Under the pieces are notes generated by a model. It saw only the letters and a program-made list of their open reading frames with translations, ran no database searches and was not told the DNA's origin. This document shows positions 2,183 to 20,102 of a DNA stretch of 32,000 bases, in pieces. This stretch comes from Candidatus Thorarchaeota archaeon (lineage in GTDB: Archaea > Asgardarchaeota > Heimdallarchaeia > Hodarchaeales > Hodarchaeaceae). Within the stretch, counting starts at the first letter, position 1; the number at the start of each line of letters is the position of its first letter. Position numbers and translations under genes: made by a program. The DNA is taken from positions 1 through 32,000 of the forward strand of contig JBHLRO010000006.1 of the NCBI GenBank assembly GCA_048882505.1, in the 5' to 3' direction.

Positions 2183-3475
2183 ATGATAAAGCGAATTCTC
2201 TCATCATTGGGGGAGATAAAACTTGCGCAGAAGCTGTTCCTGCTTACTATATCTATGATATTTCTTCTCGAACTGCTAATCATGCTCTTCCTTGAATTCA
2301 TTTTCACCGCATCTCCAGCGGTTGAGGCTTTACTGGATGCGGTACTTATAACCGTATTGGTGTCTCCAATTTTATATTTTACGATTTTTAAACGCTTAGA
2401 ACAGGAGTTTGTTCAGCGAGAATTGGCCCACCGGAGATTAGAGGAATCCCGGAATCATTATCAGATGTTGGTGAACGAATTAGAAGAAGGGGTGGTTCTC
2501 GAAACTCATGAAGGGATTATTTCGTTTGTCAATCCACGCTTTCTCGAAATGGTCGGATATCAACAAGAAGATTTATTGGGGAAGCATAGAAAAGTCATTC
2601 TTCCTCAAGCGGGCCAAATTTCGGCTGATCCCTTTAATGGGGCAGTCAGGTTACAAGATCGGTATGAAACTTATCTCCTAACTAAAGGAAAAATTCGTAT
2701 TCCCGTTTTAGTTAGCTCTGCTCCAGTGTTGAATCATAAAGGAAGGTCTCAGGGAGTATTGAGTGTCTTTATGGATATTTCAGAGCAAAAAAAGTACCAA
2801 GAGTTGCAGGAACGGTTTATTTCCACGACTAGTCATGAATTACGTACTCCCGTTACCGTTATCAGAGGATACGTTGATCTATTGAAGCAGGGCGACCGCT
2901 TTCCGGCTGAGGAGCAAGATCGAATTTTTGGGAGTTTGACTCGGAATCTCGATAGACTTACCCAATTGATTGGCCAAGTTCATATGGTTACGCAAATCCG
3001 ACGGGAAAACTTTCAGATTTTTCCTCACTACTTTAATCTAGAGGAATTTATCGAAACTATTCGAGACCAATGTCGTATGGCATATCCGAACCGTGGAATT
3101 ATCGTTAACCATCTGAACAACGTTAATTACAGAGGGCTGATCCTGGATCAAGACAAAGTTATCCAGGCAGTTCATAATCTCCTTGATAACGCGGTGAAAA
3201 ATTCTCATCCTAGGTCTCTGGTGGAATTAACCTTCCAAACTATGGCGGATAGTTTCCAAATCAGCGTCGTGGATCATGGATCAGGTATTTCCTTTCATAA
3301 TATTTTGGGTTTATTTCACCCTTTTACCCATTTTGACACCCCGTATTCTGTGAGAGGATCAGGATTGGGACTCTACGTCGTGAAGAGCATCGCTTTTGCC
3401 CATCAAGGCCATGTAGAAGTACACTCGCAAGAACAAGTAGGGTCCAGGTTTATGGTTTATCTCCCGATCCAATAA
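2183..3475 (+). CDS. Membrane-bound PAS-domain sensor histidine kinase (2 TM - PAS - HisKA - HATPase_c)
   Basis: Two N-terminal TM helices, PAS (FVNPRFLEMVGY), H-box SHELRTP, N-box NLLDNAVK, G1 DHGSGI, F-box LFHPF, G2 GSGLGL. Confidence 0.93.
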   Translation: MIKRILSSLGEIKLAQKLFLLTISMIFLLELLIMLFLEFIFTASPAVEALLDAVLITVLVSPILYFTIFKRLEQEFVQRELAHRRLEESRNHYQMLVNELEEGVVLETHEGIISFVNPRFLEMVGYQQEDLLGKHRKVILPQAGQISADPFNGAVRLQDRYETYLLTKGKIRIPVLVSSAPVLNHKGRSQGVLSVFMDISEQKKYQELQERFISTTSHELRTPVTVIRGYVDLLKQGDRFPAEEQDRIFGSLTRNLDRLTQLIGQVHMVTQIRRENFQIFPHYFNLEEFIETIRDQCRMAYPNRGIIVNHLNNVNYRGLILDQDKVIQAVHNLLDNAVKNSHPRSLVELTFQTMADSFQISVVDHGSGISFHNILGLFHPFTHFDTPYSVRGSGLGLYVVKSIAFAHQGHVEVHSQEQVGSRFMVYLPIQ

Positions 3476-3629
3476 TGGAATAATTTCTTGAGAACACTAT
3501 TATATCGTTTTTGTTTAATATCAGGGAAAGAAAAATCCGAGATTCGTTGATCCAGAGCTTGGATTATATTAGCATGTTGTCCGTAGAAGCAACGAATCTG
3601 GTATTTTCACTGAAGCCAAAATATTCTTC

Positions 3630-4445
3630 TTAAGATTCCGCTGATCTTTCGTTGTTTGGAAATGTTTTCGTATTTGAGGTTTTTAAAAGCAAAGCAATTT
3701 CCTCAGTCTTTGTTGTGACCGAAGCCATTAATGTTGAAATCGCATCTAATTTTTCCTGAACCCGATCATCAATTATCGCCTTTGCTTCATTAATTGTCTC
3801 GTCAAGTTTATCTTGGAGGGCATTAGAATGGGCAATTTGCGTGCGAAATTTCTCGGAATCCACCTTGAATTCATTAGAAAGAATATCAATGTTTTTTTGA
3901 AGTCTATATTCAGAATTGATTAGTTTTGAGCGAAAATCGTCATGATACTGTTCAACAAGGTTGGTAAGTCTCTCAAACATCTGTTGTTGATCCTCAGCGA
4001 TTGAGCTCACGATCTCCCGCAACTTGGTTCTAACCTGATCGATATTTTCAGATTGTTGCTGCAATGAAGCTGCCTGATGACCTATAAGTCTATTAAGTTC
4101 TTCTAATCCGTTTCCAAGCATGTCCAGTGCTTGTGCTAAGCTTTTAACCTGATTCTGATTTTCACTTTCTTGAATATGGTTGGCGATTCTCTCCTCCAAC
4201 GCATCAATTTTATTAATGAGAGCATTTATTCTATTAGGACTCGTTCCTCCCGCATCTTCCCATTTCATTTTTCGAGCGTTTGTATCTTTAGGTGAAGCTT
4301 CCAGATTCTCTAAATATCGTTTGATTTCTTCTATCTTTATTGAATTGCCCTTTACAAGCCTCACCAGCTCTGGAATCGAATGGTGAAGGTCAACCGTCCT
4401 TCTGCCATATTCGTTTGAGTTGTTATTCATTTTAAAAATCCCCAT
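3630..4445 (-). CDS. Uncharacterised coiled-coil protein, divergent from the chemosensory cluster
   Basis: 271-aa ORF, mostly heptad-patterned L/I/E/Q/K-rich sequence, no TM segment. Alternative start at 4430 (MNNNSNEY). Confidence 0.7.
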   Translation of the reverse strand: MGIFKMNNNSNEYGRRTVDLHHSIPELVRLVKGNSIKIEEIKRYLENLEASPKDTNARKMKWEDAGGTSPNRINALINKIDALEERIANHIQESENQNQVKSLAQALDMLGNGLEELNRLIGHQAASLQQQSENIDQVRTKLREIVSSIAEDQQQMFERLTNLVEQYHDDFRSKLINSEYRLQKNIDILSNEFKVDSEKFRTQIAHSNALQDKLDETINEAKAIIDDRVQEKLDAISTLMASVTTKTEEIALLLKTSNTKTFPNNERSAES

Positions 4446-4799: not shown

Positions 4800-4932
4800 G
4801 AATCCAAATGGTTTAACTAAAAACAATAGAGGACAATTATGATTTAAAGAATGTGGGTATCGTACCCACTTGAATTCTCGTCCTCAAAACCAAATAATTG
4901 TAGTTATATACGGAATATGGGAAAATTCGATT

Positions 4933-6024
4933 ATGAAAGGTGTGGTAAGAGTACTAGTGGTAGATGATTCTGCAGTAGCTAGGCAAACGATTTCCAGGAT
5001 AATCAGCGAAAGTAATAAAGCCATTGAAGTGGTGGCAACAGCCCCTAATGGAAAAATCGCCTTGGAAAAGATGCCTATCCCTAAATTTAAACCCGATGTT
5101 GTCACTATGGACATTATGATGCCTGAGATGGATGGTTTTGAAACTATAGGCCATATAATGGATCGATTTCCTACCCCCGTAATAATTGTTTCTGCCCTAA
5201 GCCACAAGGACATCGACGCTGCCCTTTCAAACTCTGGTATGACTGCGTTCGAATCTGGAGCAGTAGAATTTGTAAAGAAACCAAACCCTCAGGTTTCATC
5301 TGACGAAAAACGTTTTAAGAGAGAATTGATTGACAAAATCATCAATCTATCGGAAACCAATTTACCACAGGCTCTGAGGGGGTTTGATTTCAAATCCTTT
5401 CTTAAGGAGGATGAAATGCCAAAGCCTATCGTAACACGGGAAACTAAAAGAACAGTGAAAGGATTTCATGAGACGCTAATTGTCATCGGTGCCTCTACGG
5501 GTGGCCCGAGAGCTGTCTCACTAATTCTATCTAAAATCCCTCCTGTTTTTCCTCCAATAATTGTTGTCCAGCATATGCCTGAGGAGATGGTGGAATCCTG
5601 GGCCAAAAGGTTACAAAGTTTATATCCTCATTTGAAAATCAAAATCCCCAGTGACAAGGAGTTCATAGAGCCCAATCGTGTTTATATAGCACCAGGGGGC
5701 AGGCATTGTGCCGTGAAAGATGGAAGGAGATTTCATTTGCATAATGGACCCAAAGTGAATTTTCTCAGGCCTGCCATAGATGTTACTCTCATTTCCGCTT
5801 CTGAAGTATATCGTGAAAATATTCTTGGAGTAATTCTCACCGGGATGGGAAAGGATGGATATGAGGGAGCAAAGAGAATAAAGGCGATAGGAGGAAAAAT
5901 TTTCGCAGAACATGAATCCACATGTGTGATTTATGGAATGCCCAAAGTCATAATAGAGGGTGGATTGGCAGATCGGGTTGCGCCATTACACACCATTCCA
6001 GCTATCATTCTCGGTCAAAACTAG
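4933..6024 (+). CDS. cheB: Chemotaxis response regulator / protein-glutamate methylesterase CheB
   Basis: Receiver domain (VLVVDDS, TMDIMMPEMDG, FVKKP) plus methylesterase triad GASTGG (Ser), VQHMP (His), LTGMGKDG (Asp). ATG at 4933 preferred over TTG at 4870. Confidence 0.97.
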   Translation: MKGVVRVLVVDDSAVARQTISRIISESNKAIEVVATAPNGKIALEKMPIPKFKPDVVTMDIMMPEMDGFETIGHIMDRFPTPVIIVSALSHKDIDAALSNSGMTAFESGAVEFVKKPNPQVSSDEKRFKRELIDKIINLSETNLPQALRGFDFKSFLKEDEMPKPIVTRETKRTVKGFHETLIVIGASTGGPRAVSLILSKIPPVFPPIIVVQHMPEEMVESWAKRLQSLYPHLKIKIPSDKEFIEPNRVYIAPGGRHCAVKDGRRFHLHNGPKVNFLRPAIDVTLISASEVYRENILGVILTGMGKDGYEGAKRIKAIGGKIFAEHESTCVIYGMPKVIIEGGLADRVAPLHTIPAIILGQN

Positions 6025-6293: not shown

Positions 6294-8234
6294 ATGGGAC
6301 TGCTTAAATTTCTAGATAATATTAAGGTTTCAAATAAACTTATTGGAACATTCTTTATAGTGGCATGTATTTCTGGCGTTGTAGGAATATTTGCAACGGT
6401 CCAGATCAACGGATTGAATACTTCGATAAAGGAGATTGTAGAAGTAAATGTAGAACAGGCAGATTGGTCAATGGAATCCATAATTGCAGTAGAATCCCAA
6501 ATTATGACCATCCACGCGTCTATGCTTGGAGAAACGGAGGCACGCGACGAATTCATTGAAGCTCATAACAAAGTGATGGATGGATTCCATAATTTGACCG
6601 TGCTTCTCAAAGGGACTTCACAGGAAACCGCTGTAACTGCCCTAGAAACACAATACCACAGCTTCCATATGGCCTGCAATGGTACTTCAGGGGTGTTTGA
6701 TTCAACAATTAAATATGAGGAGGCAAAAAGCGTAGCTGATACCCAATACTGGGCGCTGGATCAGCTTGAAGATGAAACGGACGAAAAATTAGCCTCATTG
6801 GAAGAATTAGTGACTGCCTATGCGTTGGATAATGCATTGACCCCTAATGCTACTCTCTCGGACAATGCAATGGAGCTTAATCTCATTGTGTGGAGGATGG
6901 TTGACCGAGCACGAATGTATATGGCAGTGCCATTGGATTATAGCCTCGAGAATAACAATACGCGAGAACAATTGCGTAATGAGTATGCCGATGAAATCTC
7001 AATCCTTGCTGAAACTGATTTCGTCCAATCTGGTCTTGAAAAAGACTTCACTGATCTATTGGGCCAGGCAGAAGCAAATTTTCAATGGGCACTTGCCAAT
7101 GGTTCGATGAACACTACAGCCTTAACCATCCTTGAAGATGTCCGGACTAGGGTCGTATTTAATTCGAGCAATCAGAATACGAGTCTTGCTGATGCCGTCC
7201 GGAGTCAGGAGGACGGGGTTTTTGTCAAACAAGATACACTCGTGGCTAATTGGGTCGCTGCTACTGATGCTATGGAAACTGCTGACTCGTTAGGGTCATC
7301 ATTACAAGCCGATCTTGAAGTTCTGGAGCTGTGGGTTGGAGACCAGTTGGATTTGGCAAAGATGGCCGCTGCACAGTCATTTAATGATGCCATCCTCTTT
7401 ATTCCCGTACTTACAGTTGTCGCGATCGTGATTGGGGCGCTATCCGGTTATTTCCTATCTAGATCGATAACCAATCCGCTTTCGAGGGTCGTTACAACCT
7501 CGGTTGAAGTTGCAAAGGGGAACCTGAAAGTAGATACTGAAGGAATAGATCGGAGAAGGAAAGATGAGATTGGGCAATTAGGTAGTTCCTTTGGAACCAT
7601 GATTGACGTGGTCATTTCACTGATAAAACAGGTTCAAATGACCGCTGAAATGGTTGCTTCAGCGTCCGAGGAATTAGCTTCAACATCAGAAGAGGTGAAT
7701 GCGCTATCAGAGGAAATCGCAGCAACAATTCAGCAGGTGAGCAGAGGCGCCTCAAACCAATCGGATTTGGCTACAAAATCAATGGATGATATTTTTAAAA
7801 TGTCCGAAGTAGTGGACCGATCACTTCACGACATAGAAGGGATATTACAGGTCATAGAAGACATAGCAGGGCAGACAAACATATTGGCCTTGAATGCCGC
7901 CATCGAGGCTGCTCGTGCTGGGGATTATGGCCGTGGTTTTGCCGTTGTATCCGATAATGTACGACGTTTGGCCGAAGAGACGAAAACAAACGCGGCGAAC
8001 ATAAGCACACTTACTGACAAGATTGTTTCCAATATCGGCGGAAACATCACTTCACTTCAAGAATCATTACAGAGTTTTGCCGCCCAGTCAGAAGAATTTA
8101 GTGCCTCCAGCGAACAAGTAGCATCAGCCGCAGAGCAGCAAACAGCGGCGATGAATCAACTTACGACCGCTGCTCAAGATTTAACCAAAATGAGCGAAAG
8201 CTTAGCCAATGAAATATCTGAATTCAAAACCTAA
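6294..8234 (+). CDS. Methyl-accepting chemotaxis protein (TM1 - large extracellular helical sensor - TM2 - HAMP - short signalling domain)
   Basis: TM1 near residues 15-38, TM2 [27 protein letters not shown] (ITNPL...[10 protein letters not shown]), hairpin [26 protein letters not shown], methylation-type heptads ([21 protein letters not shown]; [18 protein letters not shown]). Confidence 0.96.
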
Positions 8235-8280
8235 GAGAGTCATAACTCAGAATGCGAAGGAAAAAGGGTTTTGTGGTACA

Positions 8281-9000
8281 ATGGATACCGACGAGCGACT
8301 ACCCGAAGACATAGAGGATAACCTAGAAGAAAAACAGGATCCGCTCCTCAACGTCCAGGAGATTCTCCTCCTTAATAAGAAGAGCGGACTCCCAGTTTTT
8401 TCTAGGGTTTATAAAGAAACATCAGGGAAGGATCCCACTTTGATTGCTGGATTAATGGCTGCTATTGTTCAGTTCGGCGAAATGATAGGACATAATATGG
8501 AGTTAAATGACATCGGAGTACGAGAAGGCTCTCGTATATTCGTCCGAAGCCAAAAAAACCTGGTATGCTTACTAACGATCACTAATTTCCCTATATCTTT
8601 TTTAACCACTCGAAAATTTATTGAGATCGTTGATGATCTGGCCTCACGCATCTTTGAAACCATCCGAATGCTCGCATCATTGCCAATGTATGAAAACGGC
8701 GGATTGATCGAAGAGATCAGCTTTGATATAACTGATGAGGCATTAGAGGAAAATAAGGCTTCTATTTTTCCACAACTAGGAAAAACTGTCGACAATATTG
8801 TCATGGAGACAACTGCAACCTTATTTGTCGATGAGGGTGAAATAGAGGAGGAACTCAACGTTATGGAAGAGACTAATTCAACTTATCTCGGTTCCGAATA
8901 TTCCGGGACTTCTAACGATATTATTAATCCGATTTCATCAAATTTCAATAGAATGATGAAGAATTTCAGGAGATTATTGAAAAACTCTCTAAGGGAATGA
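8281..9000 (+). CDS. Longin-like domain protein with acidic linker and C-terminal amphipathic helix
   Basis: QEILLLNKKSGLPVFSRVY...DPTLIAGLMAAIVQFGEMIG..ELNDIG...RIFVRS..LVCLLTI matches the beta-beta-alpha-beta-beta-beta pattern of longin domains as seen in Asgard archaea. ATG at 8281 preferred over 8209, which overlaps the MCP. Confidence 0.7.
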   Translation: MDTDERLPEDIEDNLEEKQDPLLNVQEILLLNKKSGLPVFSRVYKETSGKDPTLIAGLMAAIVQFGEMIGHNMELNDIGVREGSRIFVRSQKNLVCLLTITNFPISFLTTRKFIEIVDDLASRIFETIRMLASLPMYENGGLIEEISFDITDEALEENKASIFPQLGKTVDNIVMETTATLFVDEGEIEEELNVMEETNSTYLGSEYSGTSNDIINPISSNFNRMMKNFRRLLKNSLRE

Positions 9001-9007
9001 TTTCTCA

Positions 9008-9757
9008 ATGTCGGCAATTCTACAACAATCTAGCACATATGTGATATTTCAAGTTTCAGACGACTCATACGGGATAGGAGTTGACTATTTAAAGGAAGTG
9101 ATCCAAACGGATAAGATTTTGAAACTTCCTCGCACTTCGGAGGCCCTTACAGGTATTATCAACCTTCGTGGTTATATTTTAAGCGTATTTGATCTCTTTG
9201 GTCTGCTTTGGAAATCTGGCCGTACTAGTCCGAATAATGACTCGCAAGATAATGCTCACAAACAATACACCATTCTTGTGAGTTCTATCCAAGACAAAGA
9301 TCTAGGAATTTTGGTGGACCATGTTCATCAACTTACAGAGGTTAATGAATTTAGGGAGGTAAAACGATCTGACTTTCACGGAAGAGATCTAGTCAATCCC
9401 TCATTTATAACACAGGTGGGTATATTAGACAAGACAAAAAAGATCTTCATTATTGATATGGAGAACGTTCTCGGTAATTATTTCACGATTGTTAGATCTC
9501 CAGAAGGTACGGCGTCTACGAAAGAAGATTTCGATTTTGACCTTAATCAATTTACTTTGCCCGATGAGGAACCCGTAGCCGATCTATCCGATCAGATAAT
9601 TTCAGGGATCCTTGTTGAGAATGAAAAAGGGGAAAAAAACAGAGAAGGTCATTCTAATGCCAAAAAAACAACCCGAAATGAATCTAAAACTACAGATTCA
9701 GATAAAAAAATAGTTAAGGGTGAAGAAAAGAAAAAAAAGTCAAGAAAAAAGGAATAA
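9008..9757 (+). CDS. cheW: Chemotaxis coupling protein CheW with long charged C-terminal tail
   Basis: YVIFQV...YGIGVDYLKEVI...LPRTSEALTGIINLRGYILSVFDL...LGILVDHV. The last ~90 aa are low-complexity, acidic then Lys-rich. Confidence 0.92.
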   Translation: MSAILQQSSTYVIFQVSDDSYGIGVDYLKEVIQTDKILKLPRTSEALTGIINLRGYILSVFDLFGLLWKSGRTSPNNDSQDNAHKQYTILVSSIQDKDLGILVDHVHQLTEVNEFREVKRSDFHGRDLVNPSFITQVGILDKTKKIFIIDMENVLGNYFTIVRSPEGTASTKEDFDFDLNQFTLPDEEPVADLSDQIISGILVENEKGEKNREGHSNAKKTTRNESKTTDSDKKIVKGEEKKKKSRKKE

Positions 9758-9803: not shown

Positions 9804-12080
9804 ATGGTGATAACGATTACCTACTCTAACTCCACCCAGCGAGCAAGGCCCAGATCAGAACCAAAAGATGATTTATTACTTTTTACTTTACAAGGGGACA
9901 AATACGCGGTTATAACCTTTGATGTCATTCAAATCGTTAAGAATCTCTCTATTAGCCCCATTGTAGACTGTACTCCGTATATGATTGGTTCAACGGCCAT
10001 CCACGGTGAAATTCTACCGGTAATCGATCTTCAAACCTTTTTCTACGGTAAAGGTTCATCACTGACTGAAGCTACCGCTGATAAAGAGCAAATCTTTATT
10101 ACGATCGGCCATCATGGAGAACACGCTGTATTTAAAGTAGAAACAGTGCTGGGAACCATTAAGAGACCCAAAAACGCGCTTGCACCAAACCTTGCCAACT
10201 TTTTTGATCTGGGGGAGGTAAACTATTTTGACGGGGCGTTTATTAGAAATTCGGAATTAATTGTTCAACTAGGATACGACAAGATTTTAGAACAGATTAC
10301 TTCTGATTTGGATGAATTTTATAATCAATTTAAGGCTGAGAATAAAGTTCGTACCATTCCTGTGGAGTCATTGGCCTCCAGAGAGGAATATAACATAGAA
10401 CTCCAATCGAATCTCTCCGTACCAGCTACAACAGTTGAATGGAAGATAAATCGTTTGGTTCATTCCGCCCATAAGGATAGATTTTCTGGAATGGTAATAT
10501 CAGTTCAAAATTTAGCCGTAATGGTTCCAAGTGATTATATCATAGAAATTTACAAGGTTCCGAACCTTACAAAAATCCCAAATACCTCTAGATCAATCGT
10601 CGGAGCGATAAGTTACCGTGGTGAGATTTTAAACGTCATAGACTTGTCAGAGCTTCTAAACATCATTCGGGATAACCAGAAAGAGCTAGGAGATGAATTC
10701 CTTGAAAATCAAACGGCCCTAATTCTTGAATTTGAGGATCGGAGGATTGCAATTTTCGTGGACGAGATTCAGAAGATTATCGAAATCGATAAAACTGAAA
10801 TCAAAGGCACTATCATACCCCAGAGCTCCAGTGAAGGAAGTTATCCATTTGAGGGGGTATTCCTGGATAGCCTTGGGCAGATTTACCCCGTGTTGAATGT
10901 CGGCCATCTGTTTACTGGATACTTTAATCCAAAGGCCTTGGAACAGAAGGACAATGATATTATTTTTTTTGAAAATCTTGTGGCTGATTCTTCACAACTG
11001 ATCCAAGAATCCATGCACGAGGGGTTGGTTTTCGAAGACGCAGGCATTTTCTTTTTTATTGACTCACACTTTATCGTTCAAGCTATCCGGCAAGAGACTT
11101 TTCTACTTAAAACTCACACACATTTTGCTATACTAGGAGCGACAATTCATCGGAATATTGTACCTATCATCGATTTTTTTTACCTTCTAAGCGGCATCAG
11201 ATCAAAACGCGAAAAAAAGGAAGAGTCAGTTGGAATTATTGTGGGTGCTTCTGATAGCGGCTTTGAAGCGGCTTTTGTGGTTGATAATGTCATAGAAAGA
11301 TTAAATGTTCGTAAATTAGATGTATTTCAAGTAGAAAAGGATTTTACATCAAAAACAGTGTCTCCAATTATTTCAGGATTCTTTTCCTATCATGGAAATC
11401 TCGGATTGATAATAAATCCATCTGCCTTAATTGAAGAAACATCGATTCTTTTAACGAGTAATCTGGGGCTTGAGGACATCAAAAACGACTTTATTTCGAC
11501 CCTCCTACCTGAGGAAATAGAATATCTGGAGGCATTTCAAGCTCGCAGAAAGGAACTAGAATTACTGCTATTTTCAGATAAACGAAGTGTCAAACTAGAC
11601 TACTTTGTCTTTAAATGGGGAGAACAGGCCTTTGCCATTGACGTGAATCTGGTACGCGGAGTTTTTGGCTCACTTCATGCTCAGAGCGTCGGTTTAGAAT
11701 ACCATCCAATCATAGGCGTTATCACAACTGAGAATGGAACGCAGCCCATTCTTGATTTAGAGGCTCTTATTCTAAATATCGATACAAAAAATAGCCTAAA
11801 CCTTAATAACGACTTCTTCTCCTTATGCTGCGATGAAAGGTTGTTTATTATTCCTGTTGATAGTTTGGAGGGAGTAATAACCACATTTAAAGACGAGATA
11901 CAACCGTGTAGAGATCCTAGTATCTTTTTAGGGGGAGAGGAGTGTTGTAAATATCAGTTTTCTTATGAAAAGGGTCAATTTTCAACGAATATAATTGAAA
12001 ATGATTTCTTAGCAAAAATAATTGTTCAAAGGGGAATAGATATGCTCCTAGGCAAATTACCACTTGATAAATCGAAATAG
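9804..12080 (+). CDS. Multi-domain CheW protein (four tandem CheW-like domains)
   Basis: Four CheW signatures: IGSTAIHGEILPVIDL (approx. aa 22-160), VGAISYRGEILNVIDL (approx. 225-372), LGATIHRNIVPIIDF (approx. 405-548), IGVITTENGTQPILDL (approx. 598-742). Each is preceded by an 'lvF..g...ai....v..i' strand and followed by a 'VD/VE.v' strand. Confidence 0.85.
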   Translation: MVITITYSNSTQRARPRSEPKDDLLLFTLQGDKYAVITFDVIQIVKNLSISPIVDCTPYMIGSTAIHGEILPVIDLQTFFYGKGSSLTEATADKEQIFITIGHHGEHAVFKVETVLGTIKRPKNALAPNLANFFDLGEVNYFDGAFIRNSELIVQLGYDKILEQITSDLDEFYNQFKAENKVRTIPVESLASREEYNIELQSNLSVPATTVEWKINRLVHSAHKDRFSGMVISVQNLAVMVPSDYIIEIYKVPNLTKIPNTSRSIVGAISYRGEILNVIDLSELLNIIRDNQKELGDEFLENQTALILEFEDRRIAIFVDEIQKIIEIDKTEIKGTIIPQSSSEGSYPFEGVFLDSLGQIYPVLNVGHLFTGYFNPKALEQKDNDIIFFENLVADSSQLIQESMHEGLVFEDAGIFFFIDSHFIVQAIRQETFLLKTHTHFAILGATIHRNIVPIIDFFYLLSGIRSKREKKEESVGIIVGASDSGFEAAFVVDNVIERLNVRKLDVFQVEKDFTSKTVSPIISGFFSYHGNLGLIINPSALIEETSILLTSNLGLEDIKNDFISTLLPEEIEYLEAFQARRKELELLLFSDKRSVKLDYFVFKWGEQAFAIDVNLVRGVFGSLHAQSVGLEYHPIIGVITTENGTQPILDLEALILNIDTKNSLNLNNDFFSLCCDERLFIIPVDSLEGVITTFKDEIQPCRDPSIFLGGEECCKYQFSYEKGQFSTNIIENDFLAKIIVQRGIDMLLGKLPLDKSK

Positions 12081-12093
12081 AGGATTGATGCAT

Positions 12094-12453
12094 ATGGCTA
12101 CAGTGCTAATTGTTGATGATTCGAAGTATTTACGATTGATGATAAGCAAGATCCTGAAAAAACGCGGTCATACAATTGTAGCTGAAGCTTCCACTGGTGT
12201 GGAAGCAATAGGACAATTTAAACAATTTTTGCCAAACGTTGTGACCATGGATGTCGTTATGCCTAAGATGAACGGTTTGTTGGCTATTAAGGAAATTATA
12301 GCAATGAATCCGAATGCCAATGTCGTCGTTGTTACAGCTCTTGGTCACGAACCTCTTGTTCGTCAAGCGTTGAAACTTGGCGCAAGGGATTTCGTTATTA
12401 AACCATTTAAGGTTGAACAGCTTGTTCAGGCAGTTGAAAACGTTCTCAAATGA
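12094..12453 (+). CDS. cheY: Chemotaxis response regulator CheY
   Basis: Stand-alone receiver: VLIVDDS, TMDVVMPKMNG (phospho-Asp), VTALG, GARDFVIKPF. Located directly upstream of cheA. ATG at 12094 preferred. Confidence 0.95.
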   Translation: MATVLIVDDSKYLRLMISKILKKRGHTIVAEASTGVEAIGQFKQFLPNVVTMDVVMPKMNGLLAIKEIIAMNPNANVVVVTALGHEPLVRQALKLGARDFVIKPFKVEQLVQAVENVLK

Positions 12454-12513
12454 GCTTTTTGGAAATCTATGCGAAAATTGACATTAGCTGGTCTAAAAGA
12501 AGGTAGGAATATA

Positions 12514-14415
12514 ATGGACGAATCGGAATCCAAAGAGTTTCAGGAAGTTATGCTGTTAGAACTAACTGAACGAATTGAGGATTTGAATACGGGACTATTG
12601 GCGTTAGAAAAAGATCCTACGAAAAAGACCGCGTTTGACGCCGTTCTTCGAACGCTACATAGTTTAAAGGGCCTCTTCTCATTGTCGGGATATCCACAGC
12701 TTAGCTCAATAACTCATAGCTTGGAGAACCTAGTGCTTTCCACAGATATGACGGGGATGGAAAAGCTAGTTACTCTACTTTTTCAGTATAACGATCAACT
12801 AAGCGAACTAGCTAGTACAATCAGGGGCGGTAAAAACCCTGAGTCGATTCATTTTGATCAATTGACCCAGCAACTAGCGGCCTTTGACGAGTTCATGGTA
12901 AATTTGGGAAATAAACTTCGTATCAGTGTTCTGTTCAGTCCCGAATGTAAAGTCGTAGGCGCACGTAGCCTAGTTCTCCTCCAAAGGTTGAAGGAAAAGG
13001 CAGCCATTGAGCGAACCATGCCCCCCCAAGAAGAAATTCAAGCAGGAGTCTCGTTCAAGGAGTTAATTATAGAAATTTCGACTCAAGAGGACGATGAAAC
13101 AATTGCCCAAATAGTGGAAGAAAGCCAGGATGTCATGAGCGCCTCGGTCTCTCGACTCCTCGATTCGGTCAGTACTACGGAAAAATTAGGTGGGACTAAA
13201 GATTCTCGGGAATCATTGACCGTGAGAGTCAATTTGGAGAGTTTGGATCAAATTATCAGATTCTTGGGTGATTTAGTGATATCAGGCCAGTTCATTCGAG
13301 AAATCGGAAAGCAACAGGCTTATTCGCGGTCATTCAAGGAAAACCTCGCGATGTATGAGCGTACGATTGCGAACATCCAAGATTTAGTAATTAGAATGCG
13401 CTTAGTTCCTCTGGAAACCATTTTTACTCGTTTTCCCCGGATGATTCGAGATTTAAGCCACAAGGAAGGCAAAAAAATTAACTTTATCATGACAGGTAAG
13501 CATATTGGCGTTGATCGTTCTGTTATTGAGCAACTTGTGAACCCTATTACGCATTTACTCAGAAATGCGGTCAGTCACGGAATAGAAGCGCCAGAAAAGA
13601 GACTTAAAACGAACAAAGATTCCACTGGGACCGTTAAACTAGCGGTAACGCACGAACGTTCCGATATAGTGATTGAAATCTGGGATGACGGGAAGGGAAT
13701 TGATTATAAAAAGATCGAGAAGAAAGCCGAGGAATTGGGTCTTGTGAATCCAGGGGCACTTCTAACAAATCACGAAATCCAGCAATTACTTTTTACTGAA
13801 TATATTTCGACTGCAAGCGAAACTACCGAAGTGGCTGGAAGAGGAATCGGCTTGAATATTGTAAAGGACATTATTACGAGCAATGGGGGAGCGATTGAGC
13901 TTGACTCTAAACCAGGACAATATACCTCTGTACGTTTGATCATTCCGATTTCCGTAGCTATTACAAAGGTTTTATTGATAAGCGTTAAGAATCAGCATTT
14001 CGCGCTCCCCATGGTCAACGTGGAACAGATACTTTCTGTTCCCATCAATAAAATTCTTGTTGATGCTAAAACTACCTCCAGATCTATCGTTGTAGAAAAT
14101 ACCTCTGTTCCGCTGGTCGATTTACGTGAGCGTTTGAAGTTTAATACAACAGATACAACCAAAAGAAACGATATGCAAACTGGAGCGAAGGAGCGGAACC
14201 GACAGAATGAAATCGTGGTATTATGGCGCAAAGGATCTCGTAGTTTAGGATTCCTAGTCAATGATCTTCTGGGAGAAAGGGAAGTGGTTGTGAAACCAAT
14301 TCATAACTTTCTCAGCCAACTAGGGGCTTTCTCTGGTGCAACTGTGTTGGAAGGGGGCCAGGTTGTACTGATAATTGAACCCATGAATTTTCTAGAGGCA
14401 AAAGGTCATGCGTAA
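12514..14415 (+). CDS. cheA: Chemotaxis histidine kinase CheA (P1-P2-P3-P4-P5)
   Basis: Hpt LHSLKG; P2 domain of the Bacillus/Thermotoga/archaeal type (ISVLFSPECKVVGARS...); dimerisation domain TVRVNLESLDQII; RNAVSHGIE; WDDGKGID; GRGIGL; C-terminal CheW-like P5. ATG at 12514 preferred over 12469. Confidence 0.97.
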   Translation: MDESESKEFQEVMLLELTERIEDLNTGLLALEKDPTKKTAFDAVLRTLHSLKGLFSLSGYPQLSSITHSLENLVLSTDMTGMEKLVTLLFQYNDQLSELASTIRGGKNPESIHFDQLTQQLAAFDEFMVNLGNKLRISVLFSPECKVVGARSLVLLQRLKEKAAIERTMPPQEEIQAGVSFKELIIEISTQEDDETIAQIVEESQDVMSASVSRLLDSVSTTEKLGGTKDSRESLTVRVNLESLDQIIRFLGDLVISGQFIREIGKQQAYSRSFKENLAMYERTIANIQDLVIRMRLVPLETIFTRFPRMIRDLSHKEGKKINFIMTGKHIGVDRSVIEQLVNPITHLLRNAVSHGIEAPEKRLKTNKDSTGTVKLAVTHERSDIVIEIWDDGKGIDYKKIEKKAEELGLVNPGALLTNHEIQQLLFTEYISTASETTEVAGRGIGLNIVKDIITSNGGAIELDSKPGQYTSVRLIIPISVAITKVLLISVKNQHFALPMVNVEQILSVPINKILVDAKTTSRSIVVENTSVPLVDLRERLKFNTTDTTKRNDMQTGAKERNRQNEIVVLWRKGSRSLGFLVNDLLGEREVVVKPIHNFLSQLGAFSGATVLEGGQVVLIIEPMNFLEAKGHA

Positions 14416-15061
14416 CGACAAGAATCAGTTTGGAAATCTGACTGAACTACAGCTTGATGCACTCCAAGAAGTAGGTAACATTGGTGCCGGTCATGCAGCA
14501 ATCGGTTTAACGCAATTTCTGAACCGATCAACATATATGAGCATTCCAAATGTGGCCCTCGACAACCTTCAAGCTATTTCTAGATTAGTCAAGATGCCTG
14601 GGGATCAAGATGTCGCGATCATTTCTTTACATACAATTAGTGATCTCCTGTATACCCTATTGGTTTTTTTTAATGGAGAAAGCGTTCGAAAGATCATTAA
14701 ACTGATGACTGTAACAACCAGCGTTGACAGTGAAGACCTATACGACATTTCTCCACTCTTCCTGTCGTTAATCAAAGAAACTGGTTCAATTCTCCTGTTA
14801 AAATATGTAGAAGCTTTGAATTACTTTTTGAAAGCTAATTCTTTCCCATCACCGCCGCGACTTCGAATCGGTACCATTGCTTCCCTCACTCAGAATGAAC
14901 TGAAGGATGTAATTCAAAATCTATCAACGGTCCTAGTAATTGAATGTGACATTTTTACCTCAGCAAAAAGCATCGCAATCGATTTAGTGATCGTTCCCCG
15001 TCTTGAGACGTTTGACCAGTTTATGCAGAAGTTGTTTTCAAAGGATACCGAAGATTATTAG
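14408..15061 (+). CDS. cheC: CheY-P phosphatase CheC
   Basis: DALQEVGNIGAGHAA...SIP is a canonical D/S-X3-E-X2-N-X22-P site. The second site is SLIKETGS-X22-P. 8-nt overlap with cheA. Confidence 0.93.
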   Translation: MRNDKNQFGNLTELQLDALQEVGNIGAGHAAIGLTQFLNRSTYMSIPNVALDNLQAISRLVKMPGDQDVAIISLHTISDLLYTLLVFFNGESVRKIIKLMTVTTSVDSEDLYDISPLFLSLIKETGSILLLKYVEALNYFLKANSFPSPPRLRIGTIASLTQNELKDVIQNLSTVLVIECDIFTSAKSIAIDLVIVPRLETFDQFMQKLFSKDTEDY

Positions 15062-15096: not shown

Positions 15097-15648
15097 ATGC
15101 GAGACCGTTCTTTCCAAGATGCTTTTTTAAATGATCCCAATCTCAAGGTGAACTATATCGAGATAGGTGAAATCTGCCTTGGCTATAATAACGATCTGCT
15201 TATAATTTCGGCCCTTGGATCTTGTGTAGGACTTACGATTTATCCCAAAAATCAGGTAGAATTGGATCGATGTGCCATAATGGGACATATAATGTTGCCA
15301 TTCTCCTCAAAAAGAGATAGTCATAAGTTAAAAAAGGCCAGATTCTCTCCTGCAAAATATGCGGATCGTGCAGTTCCAACTATGGTTGAAAAATTGGAAA
15401 ACTTAGGATTTAATAGAAAACATCTGGAAGCTAAAATGGTAGGTGGGGCAAAAATGTTTGGTTTCTTGTCAGACTCCTTGGATGTCGGAAAGAATAATAT
15501 AGATGCAACTAAAGTTCAGCTTCGTTCCTTTGGCATTCCCCTGGTAGGACAATATACGGGGGGCGCAACTGGTATGAAGGTAGTTTTTCATGTAAGGGAT
15601 TATAAATTGATTGTTACTCCAACAAAAGGGTCTCCAATGTTTATATAA
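15097..15648 (+). CDS. cheD: Chemoreceptor glutamine deamidase CheD
   Basis: ALGSCVG (catalytic Cys), GHIMLP (His), KYAD, AKMVGGAKMF, VGKNN. Confidence 0.95.
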   Translation: MRDRSFQDAFLNDPNLKVNYIEIGEICLGYNNDLLIISALGSCVGLTIYPKNQVELDRCAIMGHIMLPFSSKRDSHKLKKARFSPAKYADRAVPTMVEKLENLGFNRKHLEAKMVGGAKMFGFLSDSLDVGKNNIDATKVQLRSFGIPLVGQYTGGATGMKVVFHVRDYKLIVTPTKGSPMFI

Positions 15649-15858: not shown

Positions 15859-16881
15859 TTGAGTCACCTTAAATCAGACCGGAAAACCTATGAGAATATA
15901 TTTATGTGGTTAGAGAAGGGACGAACCTATCACGAGGCAGATCAATCGTTTGCACCCCTGTTAAAACGTAGGAAATCCCTAAAGGAGTACGTAGAGTCTT
16001 CTCAAAGGAAGTCCAAGAAAAAACAAAAGAAAAAAACAAAGATACTTCCAAATATAGATGTTTCTTTTGTTGGTCTTCCTCCCCCTGATCCAAAGAATCT
16101 ATCTTTGATTGTGGATTTTCTTTTACTAAAAAAAGTCAATTACGGCGCTTATAAGCCGAATTACTTTCTTAGACGATTGCAGGCTCGTATGAAAAGGGTT
16201 AATGCTGACACATACCAGGAATACCATACGATGCTGCGTACGGATTCTAGGGAGCTTGAACTGCTTCTAGACAGTTTTTCGATCAATGTCACTCATTTTT
16301 TTCGCGATAAAGAGTTGTTTGCACAATTAGAACGCGAGATAATTCCCCGAATATTTAGCGATAAGCGGGGATCCATTAGAATTTGGAGTGCAGGCTGTGC
16401 CATCGGTCCTGAACCTTATAGCATTGCCATTCTTATAGATAGCATTGAGCAAAAGAAAAGAATAGGCAAAGTTTTTCTTCTCGCTACGGATGTTAACATA
16501 GATCTTCTCAATCAGGCCAAAGAAGGAGTATTTGATAAGGAACTTCTAAAAGAAACTGATCCATTAAAGATTGCAAAATATTTTACACCTGTTAGCGCCA
16601 ATTTATTTTGTCTGGATTCTCAAATTAGAAAAATGGTGACGTTTCAGCAGCATGATTTGCGCTCGCCCCCGCCAGCACGTAATCTCGACCTAATCCTATG
16701 CCGTAACGTAATAATTTATTTTTCACGGCCCCAGGGGGAAAAGCTTTTTCGCAGATTTTATTCTGCTCTAAAACCTAATGGATATCTCATTCTAGGAAAA
16801 TGTGAAATTCTCCCGCAATCGATACGAAACAAATTTGAGATCATCAACACTCAAAATCGCATTTATAGACGTGTGAATTGA
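15859..16881 (+). CDS. cheR: Chemotaxis protein methyltransferase CheR (reading frame open from 15685; true start probably upstream of 15859)
   Basis: FSINVTHFFRD, IWSAGCAIGPEPYSIA, ATDVN, QHDL, DLILCRNVIIYF, LKPNGYLILG. The frame has no stop back to 15685 and encodes an extra CheR-N-like domain there. Confidence 0.95.
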   Translation: MSHLKSDRKTYENIFMWLEKGRTYHEADQSFAPLLKRRKSLKEYVESSQRKSKKKQKKKTKILPNIDVSFVGLPPPDPKNLSLIVDFLLLKKVNYGAYKPNYFLRRLQARMKRVNADTYQEYHTMLRTDSRELELLLDSFSINVTHFFRDKELFAQLEREIIPRIFSDKRGSIRIWSAGCAIGPEPYSIAILIDSIEQKKRIGKVFLLATDVNIDLLNQAKEGVFDKELLKETDPLKIAKYFTPVSANLFCLDSQIRKMVTFQQHDLRSPPPARNLDLILCRNVIIYFSRPQGEKLFRRFYSALKPNGYLILGKCEILPQSIRNKFEIINTQNRIYRRVN

Positions 16882-17723: not shown

Positions 17724-19511
17724 CTATTGATCATTCGTGAATAAATCAATTCCCCTCGGCGTCAGATCCACTTCTTTTCGCCTTCCTTTTCCAGTGATCC
17801 TTATGTAACCTGCAATGGACAGGTTCCCGATTCTCTTCCTAGCGGTTGGTCTGCTTATCTGTAGACGATCGCTTATATGTTTATAAGACGGTTTAATCCC
17901 CAAATTGTTTTGTCTGTATACGAATCTCAAAATCTCAACAAAGTCATCAGGAAGACTCGCGATAAACCTAGTGTCTATTCGTTTGGTTTCTTGCTCAAGC
18001 AATCGAAATTCTTCCTTATTTAAAGTCGAAGCGTCAATACAGAGAATGATTATTGAATTATATAGATATGCGATCTCTTTCAATTTACATACGAAAAGTA
18101 GAATGTTGTTGAATCCCTCGTGTGCCACAAGGTAGTCCATACGTTCTAGGAGGATAACGCTTTTAGCTGGCATCCCAGTAATAGTCACTTCGATTTCTTT
18201 AATGATTGTGGATGGATCATTATTCCAGATACAATTGGTCGCCATTTGAGCGAGCCATAAAAACTCATAGTTTCCTTCCAAGTCTCTTCTATAAACCTCT
18301 TCCGGAGTTCTAGAGATAGCTAGGCCCGAATAGCCTGTTTTCATGATATCACTAAAAACTGACTTGGCAAAGACTGGTTTTGTTTCCTCCACAAGATAAA
18401 CTTCTCCTTCTTGTATATTGAACTTCATCAAATGACTTTGTTTTTGAGCTTCAGCGGATTTGCGGGCAGAAATATCTCGATAATAAACAAGGGTAAAAAG
18501 CTCGCCTGACCTTTCAATAATTATCCCTCTGGCTTCGACTGGGATTATTTTTCCTTTCTTTGTGAGGAGAGCTGTTTCTCCGATGTAACATCTGCCATGT
18601 GTTGATACTCTTTTGATAAGCTCTTTTATTCTCTGATACTGGTTAATAGGGTGTAGATATTGCCATGAAAAGGTTGTTAGTTCCTCCTTATTATAACTTA
18701 GAAGTTCAGCCGTTGTTTTGTTAACATCAGCAATGTTGCCGTGTCTATCGAAAATCACTATGGCATCAAAAGAAGAATCAAATAAAAGCAGAAAATTACG
18801 GTCAACCTCCTTTAGGGATTGTGTGGTTTTTTCTTTCAATCTTTTTGTCAATAATTCTACCGTTTTGTTTTGCGTTTTCATGTAGTTTAATTCAAGTGTT
18901 AAATAAAATTCAGGATTAATGGGATGTGTTGAGGAGATTTTGGGATTAAAATATATGTTGGTATAAGATTCTGTCCCCAAAATGACAGTTGGATGTGAAA
19001 TTAAGACTCCGCGAAGTACGTGGGCATTAAAGCATTTACGGTCGTATTGGCAAAGAGATATGAACTTACCCCAAGGGAAAAACTTCGTAAGCCTCATCTC
19101 GTACTCAATTAGTCTTTCAGAGCCAATATTTGTTCGTAAGGCCCACGTCATTTCGCCAGTAAAACGTAAGGCCGCATAACCTTGATCTATGGCTTTTTCA
19201 GTCTCAATTCGTAGAGCTGCAATTATCCTTTTGATGTTTAACTCACCCTCCAGAGCCCAAATTTGGTCAGCTGAAACCACGGAGAGTTGTCCTTGATCGA
19301 TATACCTCTCACCATTCACTCCAATTTCACATAGATAACCCAGAACCTCCTCGGGGTCGTGACGGTCCGTAATATACAATATCCTCTCATCGTGCTCCAA
19401 TCCATCATAGATGAAACCAGTTGCGACGATTCGATGTTCGTTTTCTGTTTCATACAACCAGAGGGTATGGTCTCCCGCGCCTAATTCAGGGGATATTGAA
19501 GCTTTTGACAT
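17724..19511 (-). CDS. One-component regulator: MEDS - PAS - DUF835 - winged HTH
   Basis: MEDS (GDHTLWLYE...LRFTGEMTWAL...LIEYE...LCQYD...HPTVI); PAS (FDSSFDAIVIFD...VNKTTAELLSY); DUF835 (YLVEE...GLAISR...VILLERMDYL); C-terminal HTH-wing (PSYKHISDRLQISRPTARKRIGNL...LTPRG). ATG at 19511 preferred over 19550. Confidence 0.85.
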   Translation of the reverse strand: MSKASISPELGAGDHTLWLYETENEHRIVATGFIYDGLEHDERILYITDRHDPEEVLGYLCEIGVNGERYIDQGQLSVVSADQIWALEGELNIKRIIAALRIETEKAIDQGYAALRFTGEMTWALRTNIGSERLIEYEMRLTKFFPWGKFISLCQYDRKCFNAHVLRGVLISHPTVILGTESYTNIYFNPKISSTHPINPEFYLTLELNYMKTQNKTVELLTKRLKEKTTQSLKEVDRNFLLLFDSSFDAIVIFDRHGNIADVNKTTAELLSYNKEELTTFSWQYLHPINQYQRIKELIKRVSTHGRCYIGETALLTKKGKIIPVEARGIIIERSGELFTLVYYRDISARKSAEAQKQSHLMKFNIQEGEVYLVEETKPVFAKSVFSDIMKTGYSGLAISRTPEEVYRRDLEGNYEFLWLAQMATNCIWNNDPSTIIKEIEVTITGMPAKSVILLERMDYLVAHEGFNNILLFVCKLKEIAYLYNSIIILCIDASTLNKEEFRLLEQETKRIDTRFIASLPDDFVEILRFVYRQNNLGIKPSYKHISDRLQISRPTARKRIGNLSIAGYIRITGKGRRKEVDLTPRGIDLFTNDQ

Positions 19512-20102
19512 CTCAGAAGTTTTTTTTTGGAGAGAGTGATTTTCAATCAAACTTATTCCCTATGAAAACAAAGTTTGTCATCAGCTATAATTCGGCTATA
19601 AATTATAGATATAGAATTTTTTCATAAAAACGATATGATTTAGTTTTTTATATTAAAATACAGTGATCATTTAAAAATATATCATTATACCTCCCCCACA
19701 TGGCAAGCATTTAAGCCACCTGTCATAATGTCGTCCTTAATATTCCAAAACGAGAATTTCTTCTAATCAGGGGTCGAGTTTAAGCGAAAATTTGCGAAAA
19801 AACAAAAAGATTAAGAGATTTCAAAACTTACCGAAGTGATTTTCGTAACTAGTTCCGACGCCCGTCAAGAGTAGTTCATTTAACTAGATTTCCTTGTTTC
19901 TTAGTAAAGAATTCTTATTTTCAAAGGCTTGAAAATTCAGGAACTTCTTACGATCCAATCTTCACATCTTGGAAGCATTTAGGCAATATAAGAATATTCT
20001 TTCTCTCGAATGAATTTACAATCCAATTTCTGGCCAAATATGTGGGATTTCTACTACGTTAGAGGTTTTTTCCTTATTTCAGGAAAGTTACTAGAGAATA
20101 GG

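Follow-up and report, generated by a model that had tools for sequence, protein, structure and literature searches.

Poly-CheW, a multi-domain CheW protein of Heimdallarchaeia chemosensory operons and a putative tethered baseplate scaffold

A che operon encoding a four-domain CheW protein

The window analyzed here, a stretch of 32,000 nucleotides from a Candidatus Thorarchaeota archaeon, carries a co-oriented operon with the gene order cheB-mcp-longin-like-cheW-polyW-cheY-cheA-cheC-cheD-cheR. The CheW adaptor domain normally holds chemoreceptor arrays together, and polyW encodes a protein, hereafter poly-CheW, built of four such domains in tandem. The operon and the parts of poly-CheW are as follows:

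4870..6024, forward strand: CheB, receiver and methylesterase domains (Pfam)
6294..8234, forward strand: MCP with 4HB sensor, HAMP and a short signaling hairpin (Pfam)
8209..9000, forward strand: longin-like protein, in this genus associated with the che system
9008..9757, forward strand: single-domain CheW with a charged C-terminal tail (Pfam, 64.3 bits)
9804..12080, forward strand: poly-CheW gene, D1-D2-D3-D4, an ORF of 758 aa
9873..10295, forward strand: D1 CheW domain (Pfam, 53.5 bits)
10275..10475, forward strand: D1-D2 linker, a long helix at aa 158-181, then predicted disorder
10488..10916, forward strand: D2 CheW domain, the canonical one (Pfam, 81.7 bits)
11013..11438, forward strand: D3 CheW domain, diverged, first half of the C-terminal cap (Pfam, 29.9 bits; fold)
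11418..11570, forward strand: D3-D4 linker, three confident helices, 0.37 mean identity
11592..12029, forward strand: D4 CheW domain, diverged (Pfam, 27.7 bits; fold)
12064..12453, forward strand: CheY (Pfam)
12469..14415, forward strand: CheA, Hpt-P2-dimer-HATPase-P5 (Pfam)
14408..15061, forward strand: CheC (Pfam)
15097..15648, forward strand: CheD (Pfam)
15859..16881, forward strand: CheR (Pfam)

An earlier note on this DNA had described four CheW signatures, the first two conserved and the last two divergent, in a protein devoid of receiver or kinase domains and located alongside an ordinary CheW. This description is borne out by the Pfam scan. CheW (PF01584) is the sole family in the 758-aa protein, where it covers four stretches (E 2.8e-52) rather than one or two, and with the domains cut apart each one scores above the PF01584 cut-off of 23.5 bits. 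Based on these per-domain scores, D1 and D2 are nearer to the CheW consensus and D3 and D4 are more diverged. No receiver, Hpt, HATPase, CheR or kinase domain was found in poly-CheW by the same scan, and the single-domain CheW lies directly upstream. The note had also proposed helical linkers, which applies to the linker preceding D4 (high-confidence AlphaFold2 helices at residues 539-589) and only in part to the D1-D2 linker, which after one long helix is mostly predicted to be disordered (residues 183-224) and carries a conserved N-I-x-L motif (aa 197-200).

Contigs from four runs revealed no indel or joint in the poly-CheW gene, with independent cover that is only patchy. The same four-domain layout is present in close relatives, which rules out an assembly artefact. 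These relatives are labeled Hodarchaeales or Promethearchaeota, placing the host among the Heimdall-group Asgard archaea. The genome is 94.6% complete and contains a single MCP, the one at 6294-8234; no CheW-like domain was found elsewhere in it, beyond this operon. The C-terminal tail of the single CheW is long, acidic and then lysine-rich, and varies in length among relatives (ORFs of 192-322 aa). Just downstream of the operon, positions 17724-19550 encode a MEDS-PAS-DUF835-HTH sensor; the operons of L009 and L011 are likewise followed by MEDS proteins. Upstream of cheB, the region 2183-4445 encodes a histidine kinase with a PAS domain and a coiled-coil protein, the gene of the latter adjoining cheB in L009 and L038 as well.

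Distribution of the family and variation in chain length

Using a profile search, strong full-length matches to poly-CheW were obtained in 16 of 83 Heimdallarchaeia genomes, belonging to three families. A fourth family is represented by eight genomes in which divergent proteins of 600-925 aa occupy position X of the gene order cheW-X-cheY-cheA-cheC, and two further families probably carry divergent proteins in the same slot. The profile of the divergent group is collinear with that of poly-CheW over ~550 columns (probability 99.6, E 1.6e-24). Overall, relatives occupy this slot in at least 24 of the 83 genomes, and the order cheW-polyW-cheY-cheA-cheC is constant in all operons read, which represent five or more families. 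Since such divergent, collinear forms exist in the same slot, the gene is probably an ancestral component of this operon in Heimdallarchaeia. Confinement to three families had been considered and was dropped once divergent orthologues were found in further families. The search of the other Asgard classes yielded no close relative: the remainder of the 400 Asgard genomes covered, with two candidates scored per genome, gave single-domain matches only, and poly-CheW is absent from two fully read Lokiarchaeia operons (L114 and L115). These two operons encode in its place a CheW-CheC fusion of 555-663 aa (L114:8279-9943 and L115:10644-12632). Two che operons per genome were observed in one family (f6; L044, L046 and L054 versus L102-L108), one encoding CheB/CheD together with a canonical single CheW, the other with the order cheW-divergent polyW-cheY-cheA-cheC.

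Chain architectures were read with one model per domain in about 40 sequences. Every member consists of alternating D1 and D2 domains followed by one D3-D4 cap, and neither D1-D1, D2-D2 nor a doubled cap occurs among them. Most members have four domains (D1-D2-D3-D4). A three-domain form, D2-D3-D4, is found in L042, five-domain forms starting with D2 in L050 and P0025, and six-domain forms in P0003, P0004, P0026 and UCG01188.1; both four- and six-domain forms coexist in one genome (G051). The complete D2-first genes with three and five domains, which directly follow cheW in L042 and L050, rule out that the number of domains is always even. At L003:334-5990 (JGI contig Ga0452209_012945), a three-domain ORF is followed by a seven-domain ORF, and comparison with the sister repeat shows a 22-base gap between them; this split may represent one broken ten-domain gene or an assembly error. 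Our search found no form longer than 1327 aa. In four loci with six-domain or longer forms (L001, L003, L008 and L037), the operon ends with a second, oppositely oriented cheB, and cheD is missing from the cluster.

In a tree of D1-D2 pairs, copies cluster within lineages, and those of L003 are 70-85% identical. Two histories would fit the sequences: at least three independent duplications, or a single old duplication with subsequent gene conversion and losses. The D1/D2 alternation could accordingly derive from one ancestral duplication and gene conversion, and not from repeated selection.

It had been suggested in the earlier note that a covalent chain of CheW domains pre-forms part of a baseplate ring. 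A rigid arc or ring of this kind, which would fix the stoichiometry, is consistent with several observations: six-domain forms are common and match the number in one ring, the strict D1/D2 alternation resembles that of P5 and CheW, and Atlas models of the D1-D2 part match proteins with two CheW domains (280-300 residues, TM ~0.5), a comparison of predicted model with predicted model that gives a weak hint of pairwise packing. However, orthologues exist with three, four, five, six and seven or more domains, and two lengths are found together in G051. The predicted structure also argues against rigidity. AlphaFold2, run with a 38-row alignment, gave a mean pLDDT of 74.6 and a CheW strand pattern common to all four domains; the best solved matches found by Foldseek were CheW and CheA-P5, with no solved multi-CheW chain among the structure matches. 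The pTM was 0.38 and 0.36 in two runs, the deeper alignment raising pLDDT but not pTM, so that no fixed four-domain arrangement is predicted. With the disordered D1-D2 linker, these data speak against a pre-formed ring segment, and a rigid chain appears unlikely.

Domain classes and a putative role in the baseplate

Each domain was mapped onto E. coli CheW, the mapping of D3 and D4 being less certain (HH probability 92-97%). Residues E38, I39, R62 and G133 contact the receptor, and G57, N60 and R117 the ring neighbors (PMC13098124). Across the family, D2 largely retains both sets (E38 77%, I39 91%, R62 77%, G133 92%; G57 100%, N60 87%, R117 64%). The ring face is also kept in D1 (N50 88%, G57 96%, P67 96%, together with G63), in which the receptor residues are partly altered: position 38 is Q in 74%, and R62 is kept in only 54% (His in the 758-aa protein). 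D3 has Q38 and lacks R62, and D4 has lost the equivalents of both E38 and R62. For the receptor set E38, I39, R62 and V105, the pattern is thus presence in D2, partial presence in D1, and absence from D3 and D4. The local CheA-P5 has Q at position 38, as do D1 and D3, a single-site likeness that provides a weak hint at the sequence level.

Conservation is equal across the four domains and the helical D3-D4 linker (mean identity 0.36-0.39), which indicates that D3 and D4 are under selection and rules out that they are decaying pseudo-domains. The four classes are only about 16% alike and each forms its own clade. In two trees, D1-D4 fall outside the supported CheA-P5 clade, and they keep G57, which is missing from the local P5; descent from CheA-P5 is hence unsupported. 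Nor do the profile scores (121 for D1-D2, 75 for D1-D3 and 50 for D2-D4) support the view that D3-D4 is simply an older duplicate of D1-D2. The domains are likewise apart from those of bacterial triple CheW proteins in two trees, although a joint clade is not rejected (p-AU 0.13) and the deeper branching is unresolved.

From domain content, operon, conservation pattern and length variation, we infer that poly-CheW is a tethered baseplate scaffold which would staple neighboring CheW positions, a reading that we hold to be modestly probable with regard to both its binding and its effect on the array. In the proposed mechanism, the single CheW would link receptor and CheA in the core unit, and poly-CheW would serve as a second, structural scaffold occupying further CheW positions. 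D2-type domains would hold receptor tips and one ring neighbor, D1-type domains would chiefly provide ring contacts, and D3-D4 would be a fixed cap ending the chain. Neighboring positions or core units would be pinned together by the tethered chain; since the domains would be tethered and not rigidly joined, the chain would act as a staple, and stepwise changes in its length would leave the lattice intact. This mechanism has a precedent in the concatenated triple CheW VC1402, which builds the F9 baseplate with CheA (PMC7534058). Against it, D3 and D4 lack the canonical receptor residues, and the single CheW already has E38 and R62 (retained in 14 of 14 copies), which leaves the need for a second scaffold unexplained. 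The baseplate role envisaged in the earlier note is therefore retained as a scaffold, in view of the operon position and the receptor and ring residues of D2 and D1, and abandoned as a ring segment of fixed size. A complex prediction of poly-CheW with CheA-P5 scored 0.18 against a mark of 0.32; it gave no verdict and was counted neither way.

Another possible function concerns the receptors of the class. Unusual MCPs have been proposed as the clients of multi-domain CheW proteins (10.1101/2022.05.07.491037), and poly-CheW could, in agreement with this hypothesis, adapt the unusually short receptors of Heimdallarchaeia. The hairpin arms of the MCP encoded here have ~102 and 103 residues and are 28H-like, with one signaling domain, and the C-terminal arms of receptors sampled across the class are mostly 101-110 residues long and 28H-like too, whereas 44H predominates in archaeal receptors (PMC9680633). 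Nevertheless, the receptor tip sequence is canonical, arm length leaves the tip surface unchanged, and the receptor residues are intact in the single CheW, making an adaptor for short receptors quite improbable.

Relation to known systems and pathway output

CheW proteins with two or three domains are established, four-domain ones are catalogued as rare, and the V. cholerae triple CheW is the sole studied case. This F9 protein (VC1402; CheW.III, Vass et al. 2022), whose baseplate role has been shown in V. cholerae arrays (PMC7534058), likewise consists of tandem CheW domains only and is encoded with CheA. In contrast to it, poly-CheW has four classes only ~16% alike, a fixed cap and three to seven domains, and its operon, which is F1-like, also encodes CheC/CheD and a membrane receptor with one signaling domain, without the double-headed DosM. 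As detailed above, phylogeny separates the two in both trees without rejecting a joint clade. Poly-CheW matches the architecture CheW.IV, with four PF01584 domains and no other, a rare type of four CheW-like domains that has been listed without study (10.1101/2022.05.07.491035). Bacterial four-domain CheW proteins were also found, for example in Pelagicoccus, and are not orthologues of the poly-CheW family. A published account of Asgard che genes and putative arrays does not mention CheW architecture in its main text (PMC9834061), and no paper on the poly-CheW family was found in the literature searched, most subscription journals being outside it. The principle of tandem CheW is known; what is new here is the lineage-wide presence, the fixed domain classes and the stepwise change in length. 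With one studied case, the action of tandem CheW in arrays is almost untested, and a natural series of three to seven domains with specialized classes makes ring order and stoichiometry testable by reconstitution.

A further CheW variant located beside a classical CheW, with potential extra ring interfaces, is the F2 CheW-CheR-like fusion of Treponema denticola (PMC7666581), although it combines one CheW domain with a CheR-like domain and its sequence kinship with poly-CheW is limited to the CheW fold. The rings of T. denticola have three components, which restrict P5 to two of the six positions (PMC7666581). By analogy, the domain classes of poly-CheW might limit the entry of CheA-P5 into rings and produce a non-hexagonal, curvature-tolerant lattice, and the five CheW classes plus P5 found here, as well as the ~340 nm width of the protrusions of cultured Hodarchaeales, would fit such a lattice. 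This proposal draws on analogy alone and we regard it as doubtful.

As in archaeal F1 systems, the operon comprises CheA with P2, CheB, CheR, CheC and CheD, and the best NCBIfam matches of CheA and CheY are haloarchaeal, below cut-off. It differs from them by its 28H-like receptors instead of 44H, by the additional poly-CheW and by the output components. CheF (PF04283) was found in none of the 83 genomes by profile search, archaellin (PF01917) exceeded the cut-off in one of the 83, and ArlD/E (PF04659) was found in none of five; neither archaellin nor ArlD/E was found in this genome. Archaellum parts and CheF homologues have been reported in some Asgard genomes (PMC13705601; 10.1101/385732), so divergent forms may escape these profile searches. 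A simple type IV pilus locus (G000:C15:40074-48097), unlinked to the che operon, encodes an ATPase below the FlaI cut-off, a platform split into two TadB/C-like halves, and several pilin-like genes, and could serve the che system as an output. Poly-CheW is also a marker of a chemosensory system in the archaeal class nearest to eukaryotes, in which the usual motor link is mostly missing; cultured members of this class crawl using protrusions (PMC13716822).

The longin-like protein gave a weak Fuz_longin_1 match and an Atlas TM of 0.74, and is 64% conserved. Of the 12 poly-CheW genomes of the genus, 11 have its gene, which occurs in none of the 10 other genomes of the genus and in no other family, and is doubled where the che operon is doubled. 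The longin-like protein had been put forward in the earlier note as a possible partner of poly-CheW. This neighbor is confirmed, and within the genus it goes together with the che system, but it is missing from the poly-CheW operons of other families and is therefore not an obligate partner; we regard it as a candidate accessory component of the pathway. These data also bear on the possibility that the D3-D4 cap and its helices left the lattice and recruit a non-Che partner, for example the longin-like protein or a module that takes the place of CheF in the output. D3 and D4 have lost E38/R62 yet are conserved and never duplicated, their helical linker is conserved, and CheF was not found, in line with such recruitment, as is the distribution of the longin-like gene in the genus. 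This gene is nevertheless absent from the poly-CheW operons of three other families and is linked to the whole operon, not to poly-CheW, and a recruiting cap is, in our opinion, a remote prospect. A joint reading, in which a covalently stapled baseplate of specialized CheW classes would give Heimdallarchaeia a non-canonical lattice suited to thin protrusions and the pathway would steer an output independent of the archaellum (type IV pili or actin-based protrusions), in this genus via the longin-like protein, seems improbable as well. In two genomes (G060 and G063), the longin-like gene lies outside the operon, beside a gene for a protein with a longin-like N-terminus (L120 and L121).
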